This document shows, in pieces, positions 57,801 to 60,800 of a stretch of 64,000 nucleotides of DNA. Where the stretch lies: the NCBI RefSeq assembly GCF_050920415.1, contig NZ_CP169309.1; one strand, 5' to 3'. This DNA comes from Escherichia coli. GTDB taxonomy: Bacteria > Pseudomonadota > Gammaproteobacteria > Enterobacterales > Enterobacteriaceae. Position 1 is the first letter of the stretch. Every line of letters starts with the position of its first letter. A program made the position numbers.

Positions 57801-60800
57801 CATCGTGGTGCAGCCCTTTTGCACGATGGTGCGCATGATAACGCCTTTTAGGGGCAATTTAAAAGTTGGCACAGTTTTCGCTTTATCTTTTTTACGGCGA
57901 CACGGCCAAAATAATTGCAGATTTCGTTACCACGACGACCATGACCAATCCAGGAGAGTTAAAGTATGTCCGCTGAACACGTACTGACGATGCTGAACGA
58001 GCACGAAGTGAAGTTTGTTGATTTGCGCTTCACCGATACCAAAGGTAAAGAACAGCACGTCACTATCCCTGCTCATCAGGTGAATGCTGAATTCTTCGAA
58101 GAAGGCAAAATGTTTGACGGCTCCTCGATTGGCGGCTGGAAAGGCATTAACGAATCCGACATGGTGCTGATGCCAGACGCATCCACCGCAGTGATTGACC
58201 CGTTCTTCGCCGATTCTACCCTGATTATCCGTTGCGACATCCTTGAACCTGGCACCCTGCAAGGCTATGACCGTGACCCGCGTTCCATCGCGAAGCGCGC
58301 TGAAGATTACCTGCGTTCTACGGGCATTGCCGACACCGTACTGTTCGGGCCAGAACCTGAATTCTTCCTGTTCGATGACATCCGTTTCGGCGCGTCTATC
58401 TCCGGTTCTCATGTTGCCATCGACGATATCGAAGGTGCATGGAACTCCTCCACCAAATATGAAGGTGGTAACAAAGGTCACCGTCCGGCAGTGAAAGGCG
58501 GTTACTTCCCGGTTCCGCCGGTAGACTCTGCTCAGGATATCCGTTCTGAAATGTGTCTGGTGATGGAACAGATGGGTCTGGTTGTTGAAGCCCATCACCA
58601 CGAAGTTGCAACCGCTGGTCAGAACGAAGTGGCAACCCGCTTCAATACCATGACCAAAAAAGCTGACGAAATTCAGATCTACAAATATGTTGTGCACAAC
58701 GTGGCGCACCGCTTCGGTAAAACCGCGACCTTTATGCCAAAACCGATGTTCGGTGATAACGGCTCCGGTATGCACTGCCACATGTCACTGTCTAAAAACG
58801 GCGTCAACCTGTTCGCGGGCGACAAATATGCAGGTCTGTCTGAGCAGGCGTTGTACTACATTGGCGGCGTAATCAAACACGCTAAAGCAATTAACGCCCT
58901 GGCAAACCCGACCACCAACTCTTACAAGCGTCTGGTCCCGGGCTACGAAGCACCGGTAATGCTGGCTTACTCTGCGCGCAACCGTTCTGCGTCTATCCGT
59001 ATTCCAGTGGTTTCTTCTCCGAAAGCACGTCGTATCGAAGTCCGTTTCCCGGACCCAGCGGCTAACCCGTACCTGTGCTTTGCTGCCCTGCTGATGGCCG
59101 GTCTTGATGGTATCAAGAACAAGATCCACCCAGGCGAAGCCATGGACAAAAACCTGTATGACCTGCCGCCAGAAGAAGCGAAAGAGATCCCACAGGTTGC
59201 AGGCTCTCTGGAAGAAGCACTGAACGAACTGGATCTGGACCGCGAGTTCCTGAAAGCCGGTGGCGTGTTCACTGACGAAGCCATTGATGCGTACATCGCC
59301 CTGCGTCGCGAAGAAAATGACCGCGTGCGTATGACTCCGCATCCGGTAGAGTTTGAGCTGTACTACAGCGTCTAATAGTTGAAGTTGTACTACCCGGTGC
59401 TAAGAAGGCCGGGATTTAGTTGCCGTGGAAACTTTCAGCCCATCTCTGCATGGGCTTTTTTCTCCGTCAATTCTCTGATGCTTCGCGCTTTTTATCCGTA
59501 AAAAGCTATAATGCACTAAAATGGTGCAACCTGTTCAGGAGACTGCTTTATGGCAACAGGCACGCAGCCCGATGCTGGGCAGATCCTCAACTCGCTGATT
59601 AACAGTATTTTGTTAATTGATGACAACCTGGCGATCCATTACGCCAACCCCGCCGCGCAACAACTACTCGCCCAAAGCTCCCGCAAATTGTTTGGTACGC
59701 CGTTACCGGAACTGTTGAGCTACTTCTCATTAAATATCGAGCTGATGCAAGAAAGTCTGGAGGCGGGGCAAGGTTTTACCGATAACGAAGTGACGCTGGT
59801 GATCGACGGGCGCTCGCATATCCTTTCTGTGACGGCCCAGCGTATGCCGGACGGCATGATCCTGCTGGAGATGGCACCGATGGATAACCAGCGCCGCTTA
59901 AGTCAGGAACAGCTACAGCACGCCCAGCAGGTTGCTGCCCGTGATTTAGTGCGCGGCCTGGCGCATGAGATTAAAAATCCGCTTGGCGGTTTACGTGGCG
60001 CGGCCCAGTTGCTCAGCAAAGCATTACCTGACCCGTCACTGCTGGAATATACCAAAGTGATTATTGAACAGGCGGATCGGTTGCGAAATCTGGTCGACCG
60101 TCTGTTGGGGCCTCAACTGCCCGGTACGCGCGTTACCGAAAGTATTCACAAAGTGGCTGAACGCGTGGTGACGCTGGTGTCGATGGAACTGCCGGACAAC
60201 GTGCGGTTGATTCGTGATTACGACCCCAGCCTGCCGGAACTGGCGCACGACCCGGATCAAATTGAACAGGTATTGCTGAATATTGTGCGCAATGCGCTAC
60301 AGGCACTGGGGCCGGAAGGTGGTGAAATCATTCTGCGTACCCGCACCGCGTTTCAACTGACCTTACACGGCGAGCGCTATCGGCTGGCAGCGCGGATTGA
60401 TGTGGAAGATAACGGGCCAGGCATTCCGCCTCATTTGCAGGATACGCTGTTTTACCCGATGGTCAGCGGCCGCGAAGGTGGCACCGGGCTTGGCTTATCC
60501 ATCGCCCGTAATTTGATTGATCAGCATTCAGGCAAAATTGAATTTACCAGTTGGCCAGGTCATACCGAGTTCTCGGTTTACCTGCCTATCAGGAAATAAA
60601 GGTGACGTTTATGCAACGAGGGATAGTCTGGGTAGTCGATGACGATAGTTCCATCCGTTGGGTGCTTGAACGTGCGCTCGCTGGAGCGGGTTTAACCTGT
60701 ACGACATTTGAGAACGGCGCAGAAGTACTGGAGGCGCTGGCGAGCAAAACGCCGGATGTGCTGCTTTCAGATATCCGTATGCCGGGAATGGACGGGCTTG

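Follow-up and report, generated by a model that had tools for sequence, protein, structure and literature searches.

The glnA 3'UTR of an Escherichia coli genome very probably encodes the short, O157-type form of the known small RNA GlnZ, with a rare 5' hairpin allele

[quoted passage not shown] 2022 (eLife, PMC9731577) distinguish three E. coli types, those of K-12 (197 nt), O157 (85 nt) and O111 (230 nt), and which they report to be Hfq-dependent. The short form corresponds to Class I of Walling et al. 2022 (bioRxiv 10.1101/2022.04.01.486790), is the same RNA as EsrF of O157:H7 and carries its seed directly 5' of the terminator. This O157-type or Class I GlnZ has been detected by northern blotting, responds to nitrogen limitation by induction and uses its seed to repress glnP, sucA and aceE (Walling et al. 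2022; Miyakoshi et al. 2022, PMC9731577). In published work, the K-12 and Salmonella forms need both RNase E and Hfq for their release from the glnA mRNA, and the induction of GlnZ depends on NtrC and on the glnA promoter.

Here, we compare these described forms with the glnA-glnL spacer of an E. coli genome, contained in a 64-kb stretch of DNA (64,000 nt of contig NZ_CP169309.1; hereafter, the window) for which an original prediction, made from the sequence, had proposed the spacer as a GlnZ candidate. All features described are on the + strand unless stated otherwise. The glutamine synthetase gene glnA, which provides the parental mRNA of the sRNA, occupies 57966..59375 (469-aa ORF with the stop codon TAA at 59373-59375; WP_001271704.1 in an identical record), and glnL (349-aa ORF) starts with the ATG at 59550-59552, so that the ORF ends confirm the proposed spacer of 174 nt at 59376..59549. 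The gene order typA, glnA, glnL, glnG, yshB, hemN is shared with the record NZ_CP169399.1, which is identical at the locus, and a 301-nt query spanning the spacer found a match in 5,425 of 5,426 complete E. coli genomes. The spacer consists of two known elements, the sRNA at 59376-59461 and the glnL promoter region (glnLp) at about 59480-59549. The GlnZ candidate, drawn originally over the entire spacer, thus holds for 59376-59461 only, the remaining 88 nt (59462-59549) being taken up by the promoter, NtrC operator and ribosome-binding site of glnL. Two small ORFs in the spacer, both with a TTG start (59379..59501, 40 aa; 59420..59602, 60 aa), were rejected, as they have no ribosome-binding site and run across the terminator and the promoter.

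Alignment with the published GlnZ sequences, proposed at the outset as a check, shows the 3'UTR to be collinear over its full length with the 85-nt 3'UTR of O157:H7, the 5' hairpin being the sole part that differs. The complete 86-nt RNA at 59376..59461, delimited by alignment with the O157:H7, K-12 and O111 types, begins with the first base 3' of the glnA stop codon and comprises the 5' hairpin CCCGGU-GCUAAGAAG-GCCGGG (59393..59413), a linker of 23 nt, AUUUAGUUGCCGUGGAAACUUUC (59414..59436), that is unpaired in the centroid fold and carries the seed, and the terminator. Conservation with GlnZ seed regions, on whose absence the candidate was to fall, is present: the published 12-nt seed UUGCCGUGGAAA (PMC9731577) is matched exactly at 59420-59431, the only exact occurrence in the window, 5 nt upstream of the terminator. 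Together with the O157:H7 alignment and the annotation of glnZ at the orthologous place in MG1655, where RefSeq lists the K-12 3'UTR as an ncRNA (glnZ, b4836), the seed bears out the reading of the glnA 3'UTR as GlnZ. Among the E. coli records checked, MG1655 is the one in which RefSeq has a feature under the GlnZ match; the others have none. Structure alone would not identify the RNA, since the whole 87-nt fold (59376-59462) is no more stable than its shuffles (z = -0.7). Matches to the RNase E motif RN|WUU are present, for example GG|AUU at 59412-59416, but the motif is too loose to serve as evidence.

The three types differ in what separates their shared parts. The O157-type, Class I or EsrF form resembles the window in starting at the base after the glnA stop, in having the 5' hairpin and in the identical AUUUAGUUGCCGUGGAAACUUUC, AGCCCAUCUCUGCAUGGGCUUUUUU and glnL promoter, and differs from it in length (85 nt compared with 86 here) and in four hairpin changes within 10 nt. 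The K-12 form (glnZ, b4836, 194-197 nt, Class III) shares the seed, the terminator, the place after glnA and the glnL promoter, but its seed directly follows the stop codon and a REP-containing insertion precedes the terminator; the window has no such insertion, and its seed abuts the terminator. The O111-type form (230 nt) shares the 5' end, the position of the hairpin, the seed and the terminator, but is longer by about 144 nt between hairpin and seed; part of this extra sequence is a 98-nt insertion with AGGUUCAAA repeats on either side, an insertion that the window lacks. A short 3'UTR with the seed just upstream of the terminator, free of both the REP and the 98-nt insertion, is the arrangement of Class I. 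We consider it very probable that 59376-59461 is GlnZ (EsrF) in its short O157-type or Class I form, operating by the published nitrogen-limitation mechanism. As such, it is an already known element that has been characterised experimentally in near-identical sequence, and it is from the published work on such sequences that we infer how it is expressed, processed, bound by Hfq and regulated in this strain.

Across the 5,426 complete E. coli genomes, the K-12 type was found in 1,571 and the O111 type in 993. The short and O111 types together account for 3,848 genomes, which by subtraction of the O111 type leaves 2,855 (about 53%) with the short type. In E. coli AMSHJX01 (NZ_CP030939.1), a giant-panda isolate, the match begins only at an O111-type remnant just 5' of the seed; the place of glnA is taken by pseudogenes of clsB and an endonuclease, both frameshifted, and glnL is marked as frameshifted. 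Either glnA has been deleted or rearranged in this isolate, or the assembly is poor.

The common 3' end of the glnA mRNA and of GlnZ is a Rho-independent terminator with a U tail, AGCCCAUCUCUGCAUGGGCUUUUUU, at 59437..59461, recognised by its conserved hairpin and T run. Its stem (A59437-T59456) has seven pairs, four of them G-C, around the loop CTCTGC, and the T run of 59456-59461 is followed by C59462; the terminator proposed at about 59437-59462 was therefore correct in its presence and 5' end, and one base too long at its 3' end, which lies at 59461. The hairpin folds at -10.1 kcal/mol compared with -3.5 +/- 1.8 for shuffled sequences (z = -3.7; 1 of 200 shuffles as good). A match to the terminator consensus is on its own weak evidence, because a scan of 2.3 kb returned seven terminator-like sites where 2.2 were expected. 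The element is identical in the K-12, O111 and O157 types and is kept almost base for base 3' of glnA in at least 118 Enterobacterales loci. Among the matches listed, stem pairs 5-7 are A-U, U-A and C-G in at least 114 of the 118 loci, and covariation is minimal (two compensatory pairs in one species and a U-A swap in one), so that the support for the terminator comes from sequence conservation and not from covariation. The inner part of the E. coli terminator, ATCTCTGCAT, is the odd one out in being without the seventh C-G pair, which is kept in 114 of 118 other loci among the matches listed, typically as ATCTTCGGAT closing a UUCG-like loop. The U tail is the expected Hfq-binding 3' end of the sRNA.

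These loci were collected with the pattern GCCGTGGAAA-N(2-10)-GCCC-N(6-14)-GGGCTTTT, applied to one genome per species, which returned at least 120 loci with about two chance matches estimated. Among the 120 matches listed, 114 follow a glnA stop codon at a distance of 10-322 nt, on the same strand, and four are cut by the end of the locus and have ntrB 81-269 nt downstream; the two with neither gene, from an Elusimicrobia MAG and from Pseudomonas, were set aside as chance hits. The genuine loci, at least 118 in number, belong to Enterobacteriaceae, Erwiniaceae, Pectobacteriaceae, Yersiniaceae and their relatives. Among the matches listed, the bases just upstream, which the pattern leaves free, are UU in 113 of 113 loci, followed further out by a G at the third position in 97% and by a U-rich stretch from -4 to -8, and upstream of about -10 conservation ends, with an information content near zero. 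As judged from sequence, this profile agrees with what has been published, namely that seed and terminator form a module and that the 5' part of the RNA evolves freely.

The same module surfaces in Rfam under another name. A GlnZ family was not found in Rfam 15, and even K-12 glnZ, annotated as it is, is matched only weakly, by a REP element (naRNA4); because Rfam also misses this annotated gene, its silence on GlnZ in the window carries no weight. The best Rfam match of the window at GlnZ is Ysr49 (Yersinia sRNA 49, RF02766), of which only the seed-plus-terminator part aligns; its score of 28.8 bits here, like that of 34.1 bits for O157:H7, does not reach the gathering score of 95. The 3' third of Ysr49 consists of the same seed plus terminator as in GlnZ, whereas its 5' part is unrelated to that of the window. 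In Y. pestis NCTC5923, Ysr49 scores 159.7 bits over an interval (3863-3986 of locus L128) that begins immediately 3' of the glnA stop and ends at the terminator; among the loci scored, the gathering score is reached only in Y. pestis and not in those of two other Yersinia species, Serratia, Pectobacterium, Klebsiella and Citrobacter. Since its Y. pestis interval is a glnA 3'UTR that ends in the shared seed plus terminator, we regard Ysr49 as the Yersinia counterpart of GlnZ, and the two appear to be one RNA under two names. Neither Yersinia nor Ysr49 is mentioned in the main texts of Walling et al. 2022 and Miyakoshi et al. 2022 (PMC9731577). Elsewhere in the window, STnc370 (RF02064) matches at 55717-55785 on the - strand, at the 3' end of typA/bipA, with 55.6 bits, just over its gathering score of 54. 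Five further gathering-level matches (27865-27923, 8270-8346 and 3224-3265 on the + strand; 62279-62363 and 33010-33052 on the - strand) comprise a SECIS_3 selenocysteine insertion element (84 bits), two ES036 elements and two elements of the naRNA4/REP type, one of which lies between yshB and hemN.

What sets this GlnZ apart is its 5' hairpin. Relative to O157:H7 there are four differences, all in the hairpin and clustered at 59398-59407 (C to U, an added U, C to G and C to G), and every base from 59408 to the start of glnL, through linker, seed, terminator and glnL promoter, is identical. The one extra base, in the hairpin loop, makes the sRNA 86 nt long here compared with 85 nt in O157. The hairpin folds at -10.6 kcal/mol with six pairs, compared with -14.9 kcal/mol and seven pairs in O157, and is thus 4.3 kcal/mol weaker. 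When 59366-59470 was compared with the 5,426 complete E. coli genomes, the allele was found in about 17 of them (~0.3%), with one genome identical over all 105 nt compared, 12 more identical over the first 102 nt and four one base off; the next group, at 96% identity, has the ordinary O157-like allele. At 59468-59475, the window joins the rare hairpin to the common downstream sequence GTCAATTCTC, whereas the other carriers inspected (loci L011 and L012 were compared) have GTAACTTCTT, and only one complete genome, NZ_CP169399.1, shares the combination of this hairpin with GTCAATTCTC. Read from these sequences, this combination, which 16 of the 17 carriers do not have, may reflect a recombination event with its breakpoint between 59413 and 59468. 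The allele is probably neutral. We think it unlikely that it changes the processing or lifetime of GlnZ or alters a strain-specific target, the latter being conceivable because the allele touches the edge of the flhB pairing region predicted by Jia et al.; were either the case, it would be a natural functional variant instead of a neutral polymorphism.

With up to one mismatch, TGCAC-N7-GTGCA occurs at three sites in the whole 64-kb window, two of them 5' of glnA (57745-57761 and 57777-57793) and one, a perfect copy, in the glnA-glnL spacer (59512-59528). The motif TGGCAC-N5-TNGCW has a single exact match in the window, the glnAp2 sigma-54 core TGGCACAGTTTTCGCT at 57867..57882 upstream of glnA, with GG at 57868-57869 and GC at 57880-57881. 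The NtrC (NRI) palindromes and the sigma-54 promoter that the original prediction had placed upstream are thus found there, as two near-perfect sites and one exact core. By arithmetic and textbook knowledge of glnAp2, the two palindromes are presumably centred at about -140 and -108 relative to the inferred glnAp2 start. Opposite to glnA, on the - strand, the sRNA ES222 (Rfam RF02755) has a full-length match of 133 bits at 57675-57782, within the typA-glnA intergenic region, where it covers the NtrC site at 57745-57761 and reaches into the one at 57777-57793; ES222 matches are also present in K-12 (135 bits) and in Citrobacter (82 bits). In the downstream part of the spacer, the -10 hexamer TATAAT of the glnL promoter (59507-59512) abuts the perfect palindrome TGCACTAAAATGGTGCA (59512-59528, 0 mismatches), which lay within the bounds of the original prediction and went unmentioned in it. 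Hexamer and palindrome are invariant in all E. coli spacer types, as aligned for K-12, O111 and O157, and the Shine-Dalgarno sequence AGGAG (59537-59541) follows 5' of the glnL ATG. We take the TATAAT and the palindrome together (59507-59528) to be the glnL promoter with the autoregulatory NtrC operator that we associate with Ueno-Nishio et al. 1984. This promoter would be weak and constitutive, with NtrC repressing it through the palindrome.

Because the targets lie outside the window, pairing was predicted between the 23-nt linker (59414-59436) and the target leaders of K-12. The sucA duplex (-20.4 kcal/mol) ends 26 nt before the ATG; the glnP duplex (-18.4 kcal/mol), in the glnH-glnP spacer, ends 11 nt before the glnP ATG, just 5' of the Shine-Dalgarno sequence; and the aceE duplex (-20.8 kcal/mol), in the pdhR-aceE spacer, ends 90 nt before the ATG and covers the published C-99. 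Each of the three is better than 97-99% of shuffled linkers, and the predicted sites agree with the places mapped in the papers. The aceE duplex also uses an AUUUAG stretch 5' of the seed, which fits the published effect of a U-to-G change beside the seed that weakens aceE regulation. When RNAduplex was given the entire 61-nt 5' part and entire leaders, it predicted duplexes of implausible length that shuffled sequences matched (189 of 300 as good for glnP), and this calculation was discarded in favour of the linker. Under nitrogen limitation, phosphorylated NtrC bound at 57745-57793 would activate the sigma-54 promoter glnAp2 (57867-57882), and transcription would proceed through glnA to end mostly at the terminator (59437-59461). 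RNase E, with Hfq, would then free the 3'UTR from the glnA mRNA, and the seed of the free sRNA (59420-59431), extended by the upstream AUUUAG, may pair with the sucA, glnP and aceE leaders and repress them. This repression would lower 2-oxoglutarate consumption and glutamine import while the same transcript yields glutamine synthetase.

Two other accounts of the 3'UTR can be envisioned. In the first, the RNA would be made as described for EsrF in O157, where Jia et al. 2021 (PMC8092317) placed the 5' end by RACE at the T next to the glnA stop codon: an 85-nt primary transcript from its own promoter in the end of glnA, repressed by NtrC, induced by high ammonium and activating flhB, and thereby motility and virulence, via GGGAUUUAG. 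This motif is present here at 59411-59419, and the same study reports that EsrF resists TEX and that its levels are unchanged when the glnA promoter is deleted. The direction of the response is, however, the opposite of the low-nitrogen induction that Walling et al. 2022 and Miyakoshi et al. 2022 explicitly report, and a primary transcript is at odds with the need of the K-12 and Salmonella forms for RNase E and Hfq noted above. The window itself offers no sigma-70-like promoter on the + strand within 57500-59800 in a promoter scan, and the EsrF-flhB duplex of 18 nt that was predicted has GGCCGGG at its 5' end here, where O157 has CGCCGGG. We therefore judge an independently transcribed, ammonium-induced RNA to be very improbable, although one component of this account may hold, with flhB as an additional target of GlnZ.

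In the second account, the 3'UTR would only terminate and stabilise the glnA mRNA and have no role in trans in this strain, for instance if the altered hairpin blocked release. That deletion of the terminator slightly lowers GlnA in published work does point to stabilisation of the glnA mRNA, and the hairpin allele is indeed both rare and weaker. A terminator with no further role nevertheless leaves unexplained the conserved GUUGCCGUGGAAA block just 5' of it, which among the matches listed shows no variation at the positions left free by the pattern in 113 of 113 loci, representing several families, and the seed and linker here are identical to those of the functional O157 form. We regard this account as barely credible, and GlnZ of the short type, released from the glnA mRNA under nitrogen limitation, is the reading that we retain.

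GlnZ ties nitrogen assimilation to carbon flow, in that one transcript gives rise to glutamine synthetase and also to an RNA that represses 2-oxoglutarate dehydrogenase and glutamine import. The occurrence of GlnZ in this genome adds nothing new to this nitrogen-carbon picture; it belongs to the short form, which, and not the K-12 form, is the commonest type in E. coli.
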